From a virus, in IMG/VR virus record IMGVR_UViG_3300037245_001320, positions 64,001 through 128,000 of that record: a DNA stretch of 64,000 bases; one strand, written 5' to 3'. The notes under the pieces were generated by a model. That model saw only the letters and a list, made by a program, of their open reading frames with translations, was not told the origin of the DNA and made no database searches. Below are positions 1,578 to 63,405 of the stretch, piece by piece. A program made the position numbers and the translations under genes. Position 1 is the first letter of the stretch; the number at the start of each line of letters is the position of its first letter.

Positions 1578-1601
1578 AAAAAATTCCCACTATGCTATAA
1601 T
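1578..1601 (+). promoter_or_regulatory. Phage-specific promoter motif, copy 1 (AAAAAATTCCCACTATGCTATAAT)
   Basis: 24-bp motif found 7 times in the window, ending in extended -10 TGnTATAAT. Confidence 0.85.
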
Positions 1602-1606
1602 AGAGT

Positions 1607-1782
1607 TAAGAGGAAACTGAACCATCCTCAAAAACTACTTGACATTCTGATAAAAGTAAATTAAAATTGGAGAATATATAAGAACTCCATTTAAATGAAA
1701 ACAGGAGAATAATAAAGATTTCAGAATGGTCTTTAAAATATTCGGTTCAGACCTGTGGAAACTTAGATGGAGTTCTTTTTAT
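1607..1782 (+). ncRNA. Structured leader RNA, CI/C4-like, upstream of HNH gene
   Basis: Long stem 1680-1694/1763-1777 followed by a T-tract. Apical loop TCAGAATG is complementary to 1643-1650 and bulge GGTTCAG is complementary to 1617-1623. The same fold occurs at 52273-52430. Confidence 0.7.
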
Positions 1783-1793
1783 ATAATAGGTAA

Positions 1794-2855
1794 ATGAGTA
1801 AAGAAAAAGAGAAAGATGTTGTTAGTGTTGGGATGAAGAAGTGTAGAACTTGTGGGAAAGAGAAGGAATCTACTTTAGAGAACTTTCACGCAGGAAGAGG
1901 AAGCAAAGGAGGATTTCTACTTGATTGTAAAGAATGCAAGCGAGCCAAGGAAAGAGGAGACAAATATTATTTAGAACACTTTGAAAGAGAGGAAGACACT
2001 ACTCCAGCAGGATATAAGAAATGTAGTGATTGTGGGAAAAATAAAGAACAAACTGCTGAGTTTTTCCACAGAGACAAAGGATTTAAATCAGGCTTTAAGG
2101 CAAGATGTAAAGATTGTGAAAATATTATTAGAAACAAGCCAAAAAGAAAAGCCAACGATAAAAAACAAGCACAGAACCGCAACGCTAGACCAGAAGTAAG
2201 AATTCAGAGAAAGGAACAGAGAAAGGAATATAAAGCTAGACCAGAAGTTACGAAACACACTAAAGAGTATAATAAAGAATATTTATCTAGACCAGAAGTT
2301 AAGAAACATACTAAAGAGTATCATAAAGAATGGTATAAAAAACCAGAAAATAAAGAACGTAAAAAACAACAAGATAGGATAAATTCCCAAAAGCCTGAAA
2401 ATAAAGCTAAAAGAGCTGAAAGACGCAGAGAAAGATACAAAAATGAACCCTTATTTAGAATAAGGGTTAATCTTAGCAGAAATTTTTCCAGTCAGCTAAA
2501 AACACTTGGAACAAAAAAGCCCTCTGGAACTATGACTTATACAGGATGTACAAATGAAGAACTCTTAAAACATTTAAACACAGGCGAGTACACAATGAAG
2601 GACTACATGACAAACACCCCTTTGGAGACCTTCTTCGATTTTGATCACATAATACCTTCTCAGTATTTCTTAGATAGAATTAAAACAGATGAAAACGATA
2701 AAATAACAAAAGAGACACTTCCTTGGTTGCATAATTGGTGGAGCTACAGAAACATGAGGATTTGGCCTCATATACCCAATATTATTAAAGGAAAGAATAT
2801 AGATCAGGAGCTAATAGCTAAACATGGTATAGAAGATCTGTTAACTATAGATTAA
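1794..2855 (+). CDS. HNH endonuclease with two N-terminal CxxC zinc-finger repeats
   Basis: Two KKC..CG..K....F.........CK.C repeats, a Lys/Arg-rich linker with RPEV repeats, and a C-terminal DHIIP...NMRIWP...N..K motif. Confidence 0.8.
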   Translation: MSKEKEKDVVSVGMKKCRTCGKEKESTLENFHAGRGSKGGFLLDCKECKRAKERGDKYYLEHFEREEDTTPAGYKKCSDCGKNKEQTAEFFHRDKGFKSGFKARCKDCENIIRNKPKRKANDKKQAQNRNARPEVRIQRKEQRKEYKARPEVTKHTKEYNKEYLSRPEVKKHTKEYHKEWYKKPENKERKKQQDRINSQKPENKAKRAERRRERYKNEPLFRIRVNLSRNFSSQLKTLGTKKPSGTMTYTGCTNEELLKHLNTGEYTMKDYMTNTPLETFFDFDHIIPSQYFLDRIKTDENDKITKETLPWLHNWWSYRNMRIWPHIPNIIKGKNIDQELIAKHGIEDLLTID

Positions 2856-33454: not shown

Positions 33455-33843
33455 AAGCCTCCCATCCTTTTGTTATTTCCATTAGCATATTCTAATAACC
33501 TTCCGAGCTCTTCACTAATGGGTAAGAACCAATCTAAGGGAAAACTATTGTGTCTCCTCTGTTGTAAATCTTCTCCTTCATAATTATAAATACCCTCCAG
33601 TACACCAAACCTATCTTTAGATATATGCTTTACCTTTGCATAGAAGGGTTCTCCAGCAGAGGGAATATGTACCTGACACCATTCCCCAACAGATACTTCT
33701 TTCTTACTCAATGCTATATTACTATTTACTTTTATTCTTTCCTGAATAGCTTCGATGTTCTCAAAAGGATATCTAATCCCATTCTCAACAATGTTCTTAA
33801 TCTTCTCTAGATCTTCATTGATCTGCTTCTTTACTTTTTGCAT
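33451..33843 (-). CDS. Hypothetical protein
   Basis: ORF in the operon, with SD. Confidence 0.6.
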   Translation of the reverse strand: MQKVKKQINEDLEKIKNIVENGIRYPFENIEAIQERIKVNSNIALSKKEVSVGEWCQVHIPSAGEPFYAKVKHISKDRFGVLEGIYNYEGEDLQQRRHNSFPLDWFLPISEELGRLLEYANGNNKRMGGL

Positions 33844-34826
33844 ATTATCTCTCCTACGTTCCCTATTATTTTAAGTGTCTCCACTTCTTTTAAAATCTCT
33901 TCTAAATTATGTTCAACAACGAGAGAATAATCTATAAAACAATATTTTTCATGATTTTCTTTTTTTGGCCAAATCCTCATATTTGTAGGACAGTTACATA
34001 ATTGCATCAATCTCTTAATCTCATTTTTATGTTTTTTCTCAGATAAAGTTAAAATAATGTCTCTAAAATAACTTAAAGGTATGATGTGATCTATGTGGTA
34101 TTTATTGGAATCTTTATTATAGTCCTTCCAAGTATACAATCCTTTATTGAATTGTTTTATATAATCCTCCCAAGAATATCCATTATCATAAATAATATCT
34201 TTAGTATGAAAGTCTTCCTGATTCTGTAAGTGTCTCCGTATACGCTTACAGAATTTCCTTAATTTCCTATTCATCTTGCCTTTTGGTGAATTGTTATAGG
34301 CTTTTGTGGTCCTCCTTCCTTGCTCAGACTCCCGATAACCTTTTGCTTTTTTCTTCCCTTCCTCTGTTTGTGCTCTTTTCCTGTTTCTTTCTTTGACTTC
34401 AGGCCGAGAATGATACTCTTTAGCATACTCTGGACAATATTTGGCAGGTGTTGTTAATTTGTATAGGTTTTCCCATGTTTGGTGTAATTCTTTATTGTTT
34501 TTATGGTCATAGAATAACAGTAGTGCATTTGTGCTTTTTCGTTCTTCTGTTGAAAGTAACTTAAATCGTCCTCCTTTTTTGAGCAATATTGCATGCATAT
34601 CTAGTAAAGAAAGCTTCTGCATACCTTTACGAGCACACATAATACAATTAGATCTGTTGTTTAGTACTTCAGAAACGGTGTTATTCCAACTATGTCCGCA
34701 CCCATCAACCAAACACTCCCACTCCAGTACTTCTCCCGCTATCTTATATTCCTCAGAGACTAATTTTATATTTCGTCCCTCCAACCTAGTCTCAATTTCT
34801 TTTTTTGTTGTTAATTTTCTTCCCAA
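33831..34826 (-). CDS. HNH endonuclease with N-terminal zinc ribbon
   Basis: W.C....CGH.W...C..C ribbon, RPEV linker and HIDHIIP...NMRIWP..EN..K (paralogous to 1794-2855). Confidence 0.8.
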   Translation of the reverse strand: MGRKLTTKKEIETRLEGRNIKLVSEEYKIAGEVLEWECLVDGCGHSWNNTVSEVLNNRSNCIMCARKGMQKLSLLDMHAILLKKGGRFKLLSTEERKSTNALLLFYDHKNNKELHQTWENLYKLTTPAKYCPEYAKEYHSRPEVKERNRKRAQTEEGKKKAKGYRESEQGRRTTKAYNNSPKGKMNRKLRKFCKRIRRHLQNQEDFHTKDIIYDNGYSWEDYIKQFNKGLYTWKDYNKDSNKYHIDHIIPLSYFRDIILTLSEKKHKNEIKRLMQLCNCPTNMRIWPKKENHEKYCFIDYSLVVEHNLEEILKEVETLKIIGNVGEIICKK

Positions 34827-34862
34827 TTATTTTACTTCCTTTTGTTCTGTTATATTAAATTT

Positions 34863-34895
34863 AAAAAGGCAGAAGATAAAACTACCTCTGCCTCT
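34863..34895 (-). terminator. Terminator-like hairpin between promoter copy 6 and the HNH gene
   Basis: AGAGGCAGAGG-tagttttat-CTTCTGCCTTTTT on the minus strand. Confidence 0.6.
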
Positions 34896-34896
34896 T

Positions 34897-34920
34897 ATTA
34901 TACCATAGTGGGAATTTATT
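34897..34920 (-). promoter_or_regulatory. Phage-specific promoter motif, copy 6
   Basis: AATAAATTCCCACTATGGTATAAT (one mismatch) on the minus strand. Confidence 0.8.
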
Positions 34921-51031: not shown

Positions 51032-51057
51032 GTAAGGATACTACCATGTTAGGGTAT

Positions 51058-52251
51058 TTACGTCAATCCTTCTTTCTTAATTTTCTGCTTTTCTTTATAC
51101 TCATCTTTAAGTTCTTGTACTTTCTTATCTAGCTCTTTTTGTGTGTACGGGACTAGTTGTGTGAAGCATTCCGTATAGCCTGCAAAATACTTCTTAGGCT
51201 CGTACTTGTATTCTTTATGTAATTCGTGTAGTGCGTTTTCGATGTATGTAGCATTATATTTATTTGTTTCTATTTTCTTTACAACTGTGTAACTATAAGG
51301 TAAGTTTTGTCCTGAAAAACGGTATGTTACTTTCCCCGAAGTAATCCCAATTTTCTTAAAACGTTCTTGGGAGTTGAACAGAGTAATGAAGTATACAGTT
51401 GCTTTACTTAGTAACCATTCTTTCTTTTTATGCTCTGCTGTGGGAATAGTGTAGGGTGCATTATTTGGTGGATGGCAACAGGAACAGATAGGATAACAGG
51501 AAAGAACGTTCCAACTTATATCTCTATTAAATCCACATTTCTTACATGTGAACCTTACAGTAGATATAGCTGTCACATCATAAGGAATAGTCGTACACTG
51601 CCAATTACTATAAGCTTGTTCTGTTAATCTATACATTAACAATTCCTTACTCATATTTAATGTATTACTGCATCTAGGGCATAACTGTTTTCGATGAAAC
51701 ATGTTTGTCCACAAAGGTTTCCACACATAGTTACAAGTAGCACATTTACAATGAATGGGTATATAGCAATCCACATATTCTTTAGATAATAATTGTATAG
51801 AAGCATAAAAAGGATGAGCTAATTTTTCAAGTATTCTTTTCTGTGACCAATGCTCCTGTTGAGAACAACGACTACAATTTGAGGATCCTGTTTTTATATA
51901 AGTCCAAGCTATATCCCATATATAACCATCAATAGTACATTGCCATTTCATTTCCTCAGGAGAGTACACCTCTGATAGTCTTTTTATAGGTAATTTATAT
52001 TCGTCTATATACTTATCTATTAAGGGAATTGTCCACCGAGTAACTTTACTGGTAATAGTATTCCATGTTTCTTCTGTTATTCTATAGTATGTTGCTTTTT
52101 GGGGTTTTTGCCTCTTTGTCCAGTACGTATCTTTTACGATCTTATGCTTAGCCTTATCTAGCTTTTCCAATCTTCTTATAGCAGCTAATAAATTACTATG
52201 GTCTCTTCCTGTTTCCTTTGCTAAATCTAATGATGATTTTAGTTCTTCCAT
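51058..52251 (-). CDS. Rha-like N-terminal domain + zinc-ribbon repeats + GIY-YIG/T5orf172-like nuclease
   Basis: SSLDLAKETGRDHSNLLAAIR (Rha pattern), three W.C..C..W...C..C repeats, and VYFI..KIGIT..E..LH..YEPKKYFAGYTECF (paralogous to 11565). Confidence 0.75.
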   Translation of the reverse strand: MEELKSSLDLAKETGRDHSNLLAAIRRLEKLDKAKHKIVKDTYWTKRQKPQKATYYRITEETWNTITSKVTRWTIPLIDKYIDEYKLPIKRLSEVYSPEEMKWQCTIDGYIWDIAWTYIKTGSSNCSRCSQQEHWSQKRILEKLAHPFYASIQLLSKEYVDCYIPIHCKCATCNYVWKPLWTNMFHRKQLCPRCSNTLNMSKELLMYRLTEQAYSNWQCTTIPYDVTAISTVRFTCKKCGFNRDISWNVLSCYPICSCCHPPNNAPYTIPTAEHKKKEWLLSKATVYFITLFNSQERFKKIGITSGKVTYRFSGQNLPYSYTVVKKIETNKYNATYIENALHELHKEYKYEPKKYFAGYTECFTQLVPYTQKELDKKVQELKDEYKEKQKIKKEGLT

Positions 52252-52272
52252 TCTTATTTCCTTTTCCCAATT

Positions 52273-52434
52273 AAAAAAGCTTACTAATAAATTCCCTCTA
52301 AGTTGACCCGAAATACAATACCAGTGTTTCTTGCATTTCTCTTAAAGGGATTTTTACTAATAAGCTCTGTTTGAGTTCACTATGATTTTTCACTGGATTT
52401 CTTAAAGAAGGGTCAAGTTCTTTTTATATCTTCT
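52273..52434 (-). ncRNA. Structured leader RNA, CI/C4-like, upstream of the Rha-nuclease
   Basis: Stem 52341-52366/52278-52302 + T-tract and inner stem GAAATGCAA/TTGTATTTC. Loop CACTGG is complementary to 52391-52396 and bulge GGGTCAA is complementary to 52410-52416. Confidence 0.72.
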
Positions 52435-52440
52435 TCCTCT

Positions 52441-52464
52441 ATTATACCATAGTGGGAATTTTTT
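52441..52464 (-). promoter_or_regulatory. Phage-specific promoter motif, copy 7
   Basis: AAAAAATTCCCACTATGGTATAAT on the minus strand. Confidence 0.85.
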
Positions 52465-52478
52465 TGAGGTGTTGTAAG

Positions 52479-52511
52479 AAAAACCCTCTCAGATGTGTGC
52501 AGAGAGGGTTT
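52479..52511 (-). terminator. Intrinsic terminator
   Basis: AAACCCTCTC...GAGAGGGTTTTT; same hairpin family as 29910 and 30729. Confidence 0.7.
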
Positions 52512-52515
52512 AGAA

Positions 52516-53004
52516 TTATTTACTTTTTGTTTTCTTTGATTTTTTAACTCTTGGCTTCGGTTCTACAAAATCTATAGGTACCAGATATTCTTTTTTTACA
52601 TTCTCTTCATATTCCCAAGCTGTAATCTTACATAAAAGTTTGTATAGGGTATCCCATGCAGGAGTTGTTTTTGCTTTCTTTTGCATAATATGAGCAGTCT
52701 CATGGCATTGAACACATAGAATAATAATATCCTCAGGCTCTTTATCTGTTCCCATCCGGTCATATTTAACATGGTGGCACTGCATCATTAATAATCGCTT
52801 CTTATCTCCTGCTTTTTTCTTCTTTTTAACAGAACCATTTTTCCAAATACTCCAGCGTTTTCTTTTACAAATAGCACAAACAACATCAGGGTTATCTAAC
52901 AAGGACTTCGATCTACGCTTCCACCAGCTTGAGGACATGTAATTTTTATGTGTAATTTGTTTCTTATCCTCAGACATATATCTTCTCTTCAAAAATAGGA
53001 ACAA
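52516..53004 (-). CDS. Small McrA-like HNH protein
   Basis: Y..S.WW, CAIC and HH..Y......E...D...LC..CH...H; start may be the MSED methionine. Confidence 0.75.
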   Translation of the reverse strand: MFLFLKRRYMSEDKKQITHKNYMSSSWWKRRSKSLLDNPDVVCAICKRKRWSIWKNGSVKKKKKAGDKKRLLMMQCHHVKYDRMGTDKEPEDIIILCVQCHETAHIMQKKAKTTPAWDTLYKLLCKITAWEYEENVKKEYLVPIDFVEPKPRVKKSKKTKSK

Positions 53005-53158
53005 TTACTTCTATAATTTTCCTTGATTCTGGATCTCTTTCTTCACTTACCCCTGCTGTTCTAAAATCAAATTCTTCTTCAAAATCATTAAGCAAGGTTT
53101 TAATGTTATCTGCGAGGGCTCGTAAGCCCTCCTTTAATTCTTCGGTTGTTTTATCCAT
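52970..53158 (-). CDS. Hypothetical protein
   Basis: Overlaps the RecA-like stop (TAATG). Confidence 0.55.
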   Translation of the reverse strand: MDKTTEELKEGLRALADNIKTLLNDFEEEFDFRTAGVSEERDPESRKIIEVIVPIFEEKIYV

Positions 53159-54462
53159 TAGAACTTCCTCTTTCTGCCTACAATAGCAAGTTCATTTTCT
53201 ATAGATAACCATTTGTCTAAGACTTGTTGTTTCAGCTCACCTTCTAAATCGTTGTCATAAACATACTGAGCTAAAGTCTCTACATCCATTCCTGATCCAA
53301 AAATAGCTTCATAAGCAGGTTCTAACATAACATCATCCATGATAATTTCTAGCATGTCCTTCTTACTCGTACTTTTTTTAAGTCCTGGAAAATCTCGTTC
53401 TTGCTCTAATAAGAACTCATAGATATTAGCTTTGTTAGCTTCTTTTAATTCATCTGAACTTGTACCTGCCCATGATAAATTCTTACTAGCAGCATCATCT
53501 TTTAGTTGTCCTGTGTCTGTAACAAGATCATGTAAATATACAAGATTAGTATATACATTATCTAAACCTATTTGAGGAAAGAAACAACCATAACAATCTC
53601 TCCCAGGTTTAGCATTTCTTACTTTTAACATCTTAATCTTAAGCAATTGCCCAATAGGGTATTTTTTACCTTTAACAGTTCTTCTGATAATACAAGACTC
53701 TGCTACTAATGTTCTAAGATTTATATAGAACTGTAAGGCTTTCCCTCCTGTTGGTTGTATCTTATTACCAAAAGAAACATTCATTTTTTCTCTAATCTGT
53801 GAAATTATTATTACAAAGACACCAGAGTTCTTTAATCTAGGTACTAGGTCGGGCAGCATTTCAGTCGAAATGTACTTTTGCTTGTCTAATAAATAACTCC
53901 CCTCATCAAATACCTTTCCTTTATCATCTGCTTTAACTCTATCCTGTCCACGTTTTACAATGGTACCAGATGCAAATGAGTCCAGGGAATCTACCATTAT
54001 AATATGAAGATGCTTACCGACTAATTTACCTTTATTTTTCTTTTTATTCTTCTCAATAGCTCGGGATATATTACAGTACACACCCTCAATTGTTTCCACT
54101 GTTGGATCTTTTTGTAACTCTACTCCATACATAGCTTGTGTATTAAAGGAGTTCCCATCCTCCCCATCCAGAACTTCGTTGGAGACAGTTGAGTACTCCT
54201 CAGATCTGTTTGCCATAATATAATTTGATATATCACAAACACCCTGAGTACCTATAGCAGTCTTACCTCCGCCTGAGTCCCCTATTATATTCCACAACCC
54301 TGTTAGAGGAAAGCCCATATTAGTATGACTTCCTCCGTGTAGTAAATCAATTAAATCCTGCCCCATAGGCACGTTTGTTACTTCTTGATTATCTACCTTA
54401 TTCTTCGCCATTCTTCCACCTCTTTCTTCATTTAACTTTTCTTTTTCTTTCTTTGTTGCCAA
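53158..54462 (-). CDS. RecA/UvsX-like recombinase
   Basis: GDSGGGKT, VDSLD, ISQIRE and TGGKALQFY motifs. Confidence 0.88.
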   Translation of the reverse strand: MATKKEKEKLNEERGGRMAKNKVDNQEVTNVPMGQDLIDLLHGGSHTNMGFPLTGLWNIIGDSGGGKTAIGTQGVCDISNYIMANRSEEYSTVSNEVLDGEDGNSFNTQAMYGVELQKDPTVETIEGVYCNISRAIEKNKKKNKGKLVGKHLHIIMVDSLDSFASGTIVKRGQDRVKADDKGKVFDEGSYLLDKQKYISTEMLPDLVPRLKNSGVFVIIISQIREKMNVSFGNKIQPTGGKALQFYINLRTLVAESCIIRRTVKGKKYPIGQLLKIKMLKVRNAKPGRDCYGCFFPQIGLDNVYTNLVYLHDLVTDTGQLKDDAASKNLSWAGTSSDELKEANKANIYEFLLEQERDFPGLKKSTSKKDMLEIIMDDVMLEPAYEAIFGSGMDVETLAQYVYDNDLEGELKQQVLDKWLSIENELAIVGRKRKF

Positions 54463-63330: not shown

Positions 63331-63405
63331 TACCTATAGATGGGCTTGAACCATCGACCCTCTGGATATGAGCCAGATACTCTAAACCAACTGAGCTATA
63401 TAGGT
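63331..63405 (-). tRNA. tRNA with CAT anticodon (elongator Met or Ile2); CCA not encoded
   Basis: ACCTATA/TATAGGT acceptor, GCTC/GAGT D-stem, TCTGG-CTCATAT-CCAGA anticodon arm, GATGG-TTCAAGC-CCATC T-arm. Confidence 0.9.

Follow-up and report, generated by a model that had tools for sequence, protein, structure and literature searches.

Structured leaders with two covarying long-range contacts precede nuclease-like genes in a lineage of uncultured phages

We analysed a stretch of 64,000 nucleotides (nt), hereafter the window, which covers bases 64001-128000 of the 154,018-bp (base pairs) IMG/VR virus record IMGVR_UViG_3300037245_001320. The record comes from an uncultured phage; its genome has a G+C content of 32.7% and is ~90% complete. 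Our subject is a leader on the minus strand (leader II, window 52440-52273, ~165 bases) that lies between a repeated promoter-like motif and the gene of a nuclease-like protein of 397 amino acids (aa), here called cargo II. The leader folds into a long terminator hairpin that contacts two boxes in the 5' part of the leader, one through its loop and one through a bulge. We found eight leaders with this double-kissing architecture, four of them in this genome and the others in three related metagenomic contigs, and all eight precede nuclease-like genes. The reading that we favour, with a probability of about 0.5, is that this family of leaders accompanies free-standing, homing-endonuclease-like nuclease genes in one lineage of uncultured phages and acts in cis, its intrinsic terminator throttling the expression of the nuclease from a strong late-type promoter. 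We favour attenuation because it is the simplest reading that fits all eight copies. Coordinates below are those of the window unless the genome or a contig is named.

The first-pass annotation of leader II had listed a promoter copy, two boxes, two stems separated by a single A, a loop and a bulge complementary to the boxes, and a run of T. All of these were found on the minus strand, each at the coordinates given, and one part had been missed: box A sits in the loop of a small hairpin, as in all other copies. This hairpin, P1, opens the leader with 6 bp (52423-52418 / 52409-52404), and its 8-nt loop holds box A (TTGACCC, 52416-52410). Box B (CCAGTG, 52396-52391) is single-stranded and complementary to the apical loop; it is followed by J2, an A-rich, unpaired linker of 24 nt (52367-52390). 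The main stem, P2, has 24 bp (14 + 10 bp with a small internal loop; 52366-52341 / 52302-52278) and encloses, beyond the single A at 52340, the 9-bp hairpin P3 (52339-52331 / 52318-52310). The 12-nt apical loop of P3 contains B' (CACTGG, 52326-52321), and a 7-nt bulge on the 3' side is formed by A' (GGGTCAA, 52309-52303). Six U stand right after P2 (52278-52273), where the 3' end is expected, and the terminated RNA would measure ~160 nt. A Shine-Dalgarno sequence of the AAGGAA type and the ATG (52251) lie together at 52249-52265, outside the hairpin.

P2 and P3 make up both the minimum-energy and the centroid structure of leader II (RNAfold, -43.7 kcal/mol, z = -3.1 against dinucleotide shuffles), and the sister leader I (1602-1793) folds likewise (z = -2.6). 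The stable 24-bp P2, placed directly 5' of six U on the transcribed strand, has the composition of an intrinsic terminator; a simple terminator scanner with a loop limit of 8 nt does not list this hairpin. The Shine-Dalgarno sequence and the ATG, 11-29 nt past the stem, are unpaired in the centroid fold, and the minimum-energy fold adds a weak 3-bp helix that touches the AGG of the Shine-Dalgarno sequence. When truncated transcripts are folded, the pairing of B with B' is preferred until the 3' strand of P3 exists. The gap between A' and the 3' strand of P2 is 0-1 nt in most copies, close enough for A-A' to stack on P2; B-B', for its part, could stack on P3.

The same order of parts is found in four leaders of this genome: leader I (window 1602, plus strand), leader II (window 52440, minus strand), leader III (genome 53544, plus strand) and leader IV (genome 150359, minus strand). 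The contigs of the relatives were reached through homologs of the cargo proteins. One of them, syntenic with the region of cassette II (L011, identical in L012), carries II', the ortholog of leader II; leaders V (L097:6014-6206) and VII (L097:18763-18962) lie on a second (L097, identical in L098) and leader VI on a third (L090:1575-1752). So far, the family thus has members in one genome and on three related contigs, with duplicate assemblies besides. The first-pass annotation had spoken of two alleles of one family; the single family stands, with eight copies in place of two. Leader I may serve as the second example. Its cassette (1580-2855, plus strand) consists of a promoter (1580-1601), the leader (1602-1793) and the gene of a 353-aa zinc-ribbon HNH protein (1794-2855), and the leader contains box A at 1617-1623, box B at 1643-1650, B' at 1721-1728, A' at 1744-1750, P2 at 1680-1694 / 1763-1777 and the U-run at 1778-1782.

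All eight leaders present box A in the loop of a small 5' hairpin; its contact with the 3' bulge measures 6-7 bp, and that of box B with the apical loop 6-11 bp. The box sequences differ among all eight and their complementarity is always kept. The parts also keep near-fixed offsets after the -10 element (box A at 13-25, box B at 33-45, the start of P2 at 63-84), and a U-rich tract follows P2 in 8/8. Shuffled controls had been named at first pass as a way to refute such a structure; here, when the upstream part was shuffled with its dinucleotides preserved, both box pairings were reached at the observed strength in 0.03-1.4% of trials, depending on the leader. The joint chance probability over eight independent leaders is negligible.

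The earlier claim that the leaders form one structured family, in which pairings are kept while the sequences change, is borne out further by the comparison of orthologs. Pairs were counted helix by helix in a script, as a MAFFT alignment of all leaders is inconsistent with the structure. Between II and II' we compared 43 pairs in P1, in the A and B contacts and in the lower and upper P2: 26 are the same, 6 differ on one side through G-U, 11 are double changes and none is broken. Two of the double changes fall in P1, four in the box B contact (out of its 6 pairs) and five in P2, which has four one-sided changes besides. Leaders IV and VII differ by 8 double changes in 21 pairs of P2, again with 0 broken, and RNAalifold agrees. 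Over both orthologous pairs, the double compensatory changes add up to 19, and every pairing is intact. Orthogonal specificity, as proposed at first pass, would be one reason for the differing sequences and drift with compensation another; the gating of the nuclease by the RNA is likewise a conjecture. The G-U pairs occur on the strand of the gene only, where the opposite strand would have A-C mismatches, and the U-run, the promoter and the gene keep one mutual orientation in all eight copies. Because of these sense-strand G-U pairs and this constant orientation, the structure is assigned to an RNA of the coding strand and not to duplex DNA.

What is conserved at the level of sequence depends on the distance compared. 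Across paralogs, the leader alignments show no conserved nucleotide beyond the promoter and the ribosome-binding site (RBS), which argues against a ligand pocket or a catalytic core. II and II' have kept the promoter, J2, the base of P2, the A' bulge and the segment from the U-run to the RBS as conserved blocks. The helices and box B of this pair are 61% identical versus 81% for the linkers J1 and J2, a contrast that rests on few positions. The linker J2 itself (52367-52390, minus strand, versus L011:9858-9880) is 79% identical, and the helices around it are 50-71% identical. Leaders IV and VII share linker blocks as well; no motif is shared across paralogs.

We then come to the genes behind the leaders. 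Those of all eight belong to at least three families of nuclease-like proteins (zinc-ribbon HNH, helix-turn-helix (HTH)-HNH and Rha-like/T5orf172), and none of the leaders precedes a structural gene. The placement proposed at first pass, between the repeated promoter and a free-standing nuclease gene, is in line with this. Cargos I, III and V are paralogous zinc-ribbon HNH or endonuclease VII-type proteins, cargo IV is a small HTH-HNH protein of 193 aa, cargo VI is an unknown 355-aa protein followed by an HNH gene, and cargo VII (at least 321 aa) distantly resembles the N-terminal half of cargo II.

Cargo II (51058-52251, minus strand) has Pfam and PHROG matches and an ortholog, P0002, on L011. 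It combines a Rha-like N-terminus (residues 6-80), a cysteine-rich zinc-ribbon middle and a C-terminal T5orf172 domain of the GIY-YIG clan (286-353), the make-up that the first-pass annotation had described from the translation. The T5orf172 domain scores 22.5 bits against a cut-off of 20 and PHROG 681 endonuclease matches at 4e-30. The match to Pfam Rha (Phage_pRha, PF09669) reaches 28.0 bits, below the cut-off of 29.9, and PF09669 is listed in the precomputed annotation of the protein, so that the assignment of this part is borderline. The gene lies between recombinase/HNH genes and downstream genes that are syntenic with L011; by its nuclease domain family and its intergenic position it would be classed as a free-standing homing endonuclease. 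The one close relative that was found carries the gene too, at the syntenic place, and the gene is 57% identical there versus 80-87% for the flanking core genes.

The leader and the nuclease gene do not form an inseparable unit, as had been supposed when the RNA was described as travelling with the nucleases. On a related contig (L010:5784-7300, minus strand) the order is methylase, terminator, a 472-aa homolog of the HNH protein of cassette I, promoter and portal, and the HNH homolog, at the same locus, has neither a promoter nor a structured leader in front of it. Conversely, leaders IV (L091:1170-1390, minus strand) and VII (L097:18733-18962, plus strand) share long identical blocks and precede unrelated cargo. 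For these two reasons we regard the leader as a separable module: judging by these arrangements, promoter plus leader appear to be gained or lost independently of the nuclease gene, and leader modules appear to be shuffled among nuclease genes. A fifth nuclease gene of the genome has a short variant of the cassette (33831-34918, minus strand), in which a small, plain hairpin with a U-run comes immediately after the same promoter and before the gene for a paralogous HNH protein of 331 aa (33831-34826). This variant has no kissing boxes. Its presence suggests that promoter, terminator and nuclease, in this order, are the common design.

The promoter itself is a 22-nt motif made up of an A-tract, a conserved block and an extended -10 element (TGnTATAAT). 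It occurs in 7 copies in the window, where 0 are expected, and in 12 copies in the genome. Since most copies stand 5' of structural genes, such as those for the small terminase subunit and the portal, we infer that the motif is the late-type promoter of this phage. The leaders behind the copies at structural genes are short and plain. The copy of cassette II lies at 52465-52441 (minus strand; the motif proper at 52462-52441), with its -10 element at 52446-52441 and a predicted start near 52434.

These parts suggest the following course of events under attenuation. Transcription would start at the strong, repeated, late-type promoter. P1 would form first and display box A, with box B staying single-stranded, and as B' in the loop of P3 and A' in the bulge emerge, they would pair with B and A. 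The 3' strand of P2 would then close the 24-bp stem directly before the U-run, where most polymerases would halt, setting free a compact RNA of ~160 nt. The smaller share that reads through would yield the nuclease mRNA, with an RBS that is predicted to be free, since neither the Shine-Dalgarno sequence nor the ATG is part of the stem or paired in the centroid fold. Such an attenuator would keep the dose of a potentially harmful nuclease low and tie it to the late programme. The likely part of the kissing helices would be to arrange the long-range terminator stem in advance or to lend stability to the RNA once it is released. There is precedent for such control in phage T4: its mobE and segF carry intrinsic terminators, the one in mobE stopping ~30% of the transcripts, and homing endonucleases are as a rule down-regulated at several layers (PMC2988022).

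Several observations weigh against this reading. A plain hairpin suffices as terminator in the short variant, and attenuation alone leaves two compensated kissing helices unexplained. Three relatives have a further match to the apical loop, in the spacer that separates the Shine-Dalgarno sequence from the start codon; a pure terminator does not predict this. The U-run of leader IV is interrupted. Finally, an alternative pairing of J2 with the 5' strand of P2 exceeds shuffles only in leaders I and III (2/8). There is no general antiterminator among the eight, so a switch between two folds is not evident.

The match of the apical loop to the translation start would suit the main alternative, in which the leader is an antisense RNA of the c4/CI kind. 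The P2-P3 hairpin would be cut loose from the 5' part as a stable small RNA whose 3' end is set by its own terminator, and A' and B' would bind the boxes of the nascent leader as well as, in leaders that have one, a second B box at the translation start. This would shut off the nuclease in an allele-specific manner, either as a delayed negative feedback or as an 'immunity' between co-infecting relatives, and the upstream boxes would act as competitors, as proposed for a1/b1 of phage P1. The layout is that of the published c4 RNA, whose regions a' and b' are complementary to upstream boxes a1 and b1, with a1 in a hairpin, and which has further sites a2 and b2 at the RBS of the target; a1/b1 may compete there with a2/b2 (Weinberg 2010 supplement, PMC2864571). 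The Shine-Dalgarno-start spacers of leaders V, VI and VII contain stretches of 10, 7 and 7 nt, respectively, with perfect complementarity to the apical loop, always 6-9 nt before the start (p = 0.0003, 0.04 and 0.03; Fisher p 0.011 over the eight leaders). These second copies of box B lie at L097:6170-6206 (identical in L089 and L098), L090:1725-1752 and L097:18935-18962. For such a second site to be bound, the loop would have to be free of the upstream box B, as it could be once the 5' part has been processed away. Each allele's pair of boxes occurs nowhere else in the genome, so any action in trans would be private to its own cassette, and the stronger divergence of helices and boxes than of linkers between orthologs would speak for this alternative, subject to the few positions on which it rests. 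Against this, leader II and four others (I, II', III and IV) have no second A- or B-type site near the start codon; in leader II, the start region shows no complementarity to the apical loop, nor any of at least 6 bp to A' or B'. The second sites are all of the B type and never of the A type. As long as the RNA is unprocessed, its own upstream boxes would take up the loops, and no processing site is known. The Rfam C4 model matches neither leader II nor leader I (E up to 10) nor any part of the 154-kb genome, and the C4 fold differs, with an outer stem and two hairpins of which one often has a tetraloop as its terminal loop. The first-pass annotation had tied the Rha-like domain to antirepressor-type operons; as a pointer towards a circuit of the P1 immI type this fails, there being no C4 match and no second target at the RBS of leader II. 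On balance we consider c4-like antisense control possible but somewhat unlikely, and still less likely the particular version in which the hairpin is the precursor of an allele-specific antisense RNA that acts in trans on the boxes of the nascent leader and, in some alleles, on the translation start of the nuclease. If the latter were true, every nuclease cassette would have its own RNA for shut-off or immunity, P1 c4 would have a functional counterpart in quite another group of phages, and an arms race between co-infecting phages and their homing endonucleases would drive the boxes apart.

Two further explanations were weighed. In one of them, the stretch from promoter to terminator makes a stand-alone small RNA with a role that has nothing to do with the nuclease, or it is an element of stability or processing (an RNase III site or, for the read-through mRNA, a 5' protective fold), next to which the nucleases merely land. 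The unit is indeed self-contained from promoter to terminator, it is separable from its cargo, as leaders IV and VII and the leaderless HNH gene of the relative demonstrate, and its stems of 15-24 bp fall within the size range of RNase III substrates. A chance neighbourhood is nevertheless hard to reconcile with the placement of 8/8 leaders before nuclease genes, none being alone or before a gene of another kind; moreover, paralogs conserve no nucleotides with which a common partner could be recognised, and trans targets are absent from the genome. We judge this distinctly improbable. In the other, no RNA is involved, the structures being palindromes that arose by chance, a cruciform in the DNA or the repeats at the ends of a small inserted element. 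The region is AT-rich and the stem is a long inverted repeat, both of which would suit such an origin. The shuffle tests, the 19 double compensatory changes with none broken, the G-U pairs, which on the opposite strand would turn into A-C mismatches, and the orientation fixed relative to promoter, U-run and gene in 8/8 make it scarcely credible.

A number of known element types were also considered and rejected. A group I intron fragment would have a different order of pairings, and the leader is intergenic, behind a terminator and a promoter, and has no Rfam match. A retron or guide RNA does not fit, as neither a reverse transcriptase nor an RNA-guided nuclease is encoded nearby, and a self-cleaving ribozyme lacks its conserved core nucleotides. 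For a riboswitch, conserved pocket nucleotides are absent, the J2:P2 alternative pairing rises above shuffles in just two leaders and no Rfam riboswitch matches. Sense-strand G-U pairs and fixed orientation exclude a DNA cruciform or a miniature inverted-repeat transposable element (MITE). An RBS-sequestering hairpin of the T4 type with an embedded late promoter was set aside since the Shine-Dalgarno sequence is not in the hairpin and the promoter lies 5' of the whole structure.

We also searched for further members. A crude seed-based hairpin scan of both strands of the 154-kb genome returned six long hairpins with a T-rich tail. Four of them correspond to leaders I, III (on both strands) and IV; wobble pairs in its stem kept leader II from being picked up. 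The two others, at genome 22376 and 9208 (minus strand), were rejected as members, having neither the promoter nor a nuclease gene; they are intergenic or antisense and probably bidirectional terminators. Before the putative small terminase gene (genome 49995-50116, plus strand, 14 kb ahead of the window) there is one hairpin with a loop of which 5 nt are complementary to an upstream segment, and with no U-run. This leader, noticed by eye, may be a reduced version of the fold, or a chance resemblance. Scanning metagenome contigs of the Joint Genome Institute (JGI) for the promoter pattern gave 76 loci, all apparently due to chance (no A-tract, and mostly a different G+C content). The same scans of viral contigs retrieved only L009 and L010, which have no long leaders, plus one unrelated contig, and protein-seeded scans of viral contigs retrieved no close relatives. 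At the nucleotide level, blastn in near and distant modes found no match to the region among 50,697 phage records, and the portal protein of the genome is at most 32% identical to that of any known phage.

Around cassette II, putative transcription signals delimit the unit on both sides. A terminator-like hairpin with a U-run (52479-52508, minus strand) ends the upstream HNH gene and is kept in L011; to judge from its position, it would insulate the cassette from upstream transcription. That HNH gene, for an endonuclease of 162 aa (52516-53004, minus strand), lies directly 5' of the cassette and has no promoter copy or leader of its own. It sits behind a gene for a RecA/UvsX-like recombinase (53158-54462), and a homolog occupies the same place in L011. 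At the other end, a site resembling a sigma-70-type promoter (TTGACG, 17 nt, TAGTAT, with TG; 51038-51066, minus strand) overlaps the 3' end and stop codon of the nuclease gene and would drive the genes downstream. In L011, the ortholog is followed by a terminator and then by a similar sigma-70-type site (L011:11229-11257, plus strand). The seg and mob endonuclease cassettes of T4 likewise embed promoters for downstream genes (PMC2988022).

Homing endonucleases are selfish genes that phages must tolerate, and the control of their expression is hardly known outside the T4 model. Here, a compact and strongly covarying fold is reused before nuclease genes of at least three families. It offers a test case for three questions: how tertiary contacts tune intrinsic termination, whether an antisense logic of the c4 type exists outside the phages of Proteobacteria, and whether mobile nuclease genes pick up ready-made modules of promoter plus governor. 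The naturally orthogonal pairs of boxes could also serve as parts for synthetic regulation.

Comparison with known systems shows that the leader stands between two of them. Rfam at gathering thresholds gave a tRNA as the sole match in the whole window (a tRNA gene at 63331-63405, minus strand), no relevant family matched leaders I and II at a permissive E-value, and no paper describing the leader RNA was found in the literature searched. With the elements that govern homing endonuclease genes in the T4 family, it has in common an RNA structure before or at the start of a free-standing nuclease gene, a tie to a late-type promoter and the presumed aim of low nuclease expression (PMC2988022). Besides the terminators of mobE and segF, those elements include RBS-sequestering hairpins (I-TevI, I-TevII, I-TevIII, segB and Aeh1 mobE) and, in seg43(25), a hairpin just upstream of the RBS (PMC2988022). 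Unlike them, the leader is a ~100-nt stack of two helices with two covarying long-range (pseudoknot) contacts to its 5' part; it has no sequence relation to them and belongs to a different, uncultured lineage of phages. With c4 of P1 and P7 (a1b1 motif, RF01695; Citron and Schuster 1990; Weinberg 2010) it shares two unpaired regions complementary to two upstream boxes, the first of them in a hairpin, a specificity that is borne by the boxes and differs among relatives and, in three members, a loop that matches the translation start of the target gene. The likeness in layout presumably extends to the CI RNA of P4. It differs from c4, which is known from Proteobacteria and their phages, in that the covariance model (RF01695, gathering score 45 bits) gives no match, the fold is another one, the basal stem doubles as the terminator, a site of the a2/b2 type is absent from leader II and the cargo is a nuclease rather than an antirepressor operon. 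The leader thus resembles the endonuclease governors of T4 in its presumed working and c4/a1b1 in its logic and is a member of neither: it represents a small, undescribed family of leader RNAs, with an unusual double-kissing terminator architecture, before homing-endonuclease-like genes.

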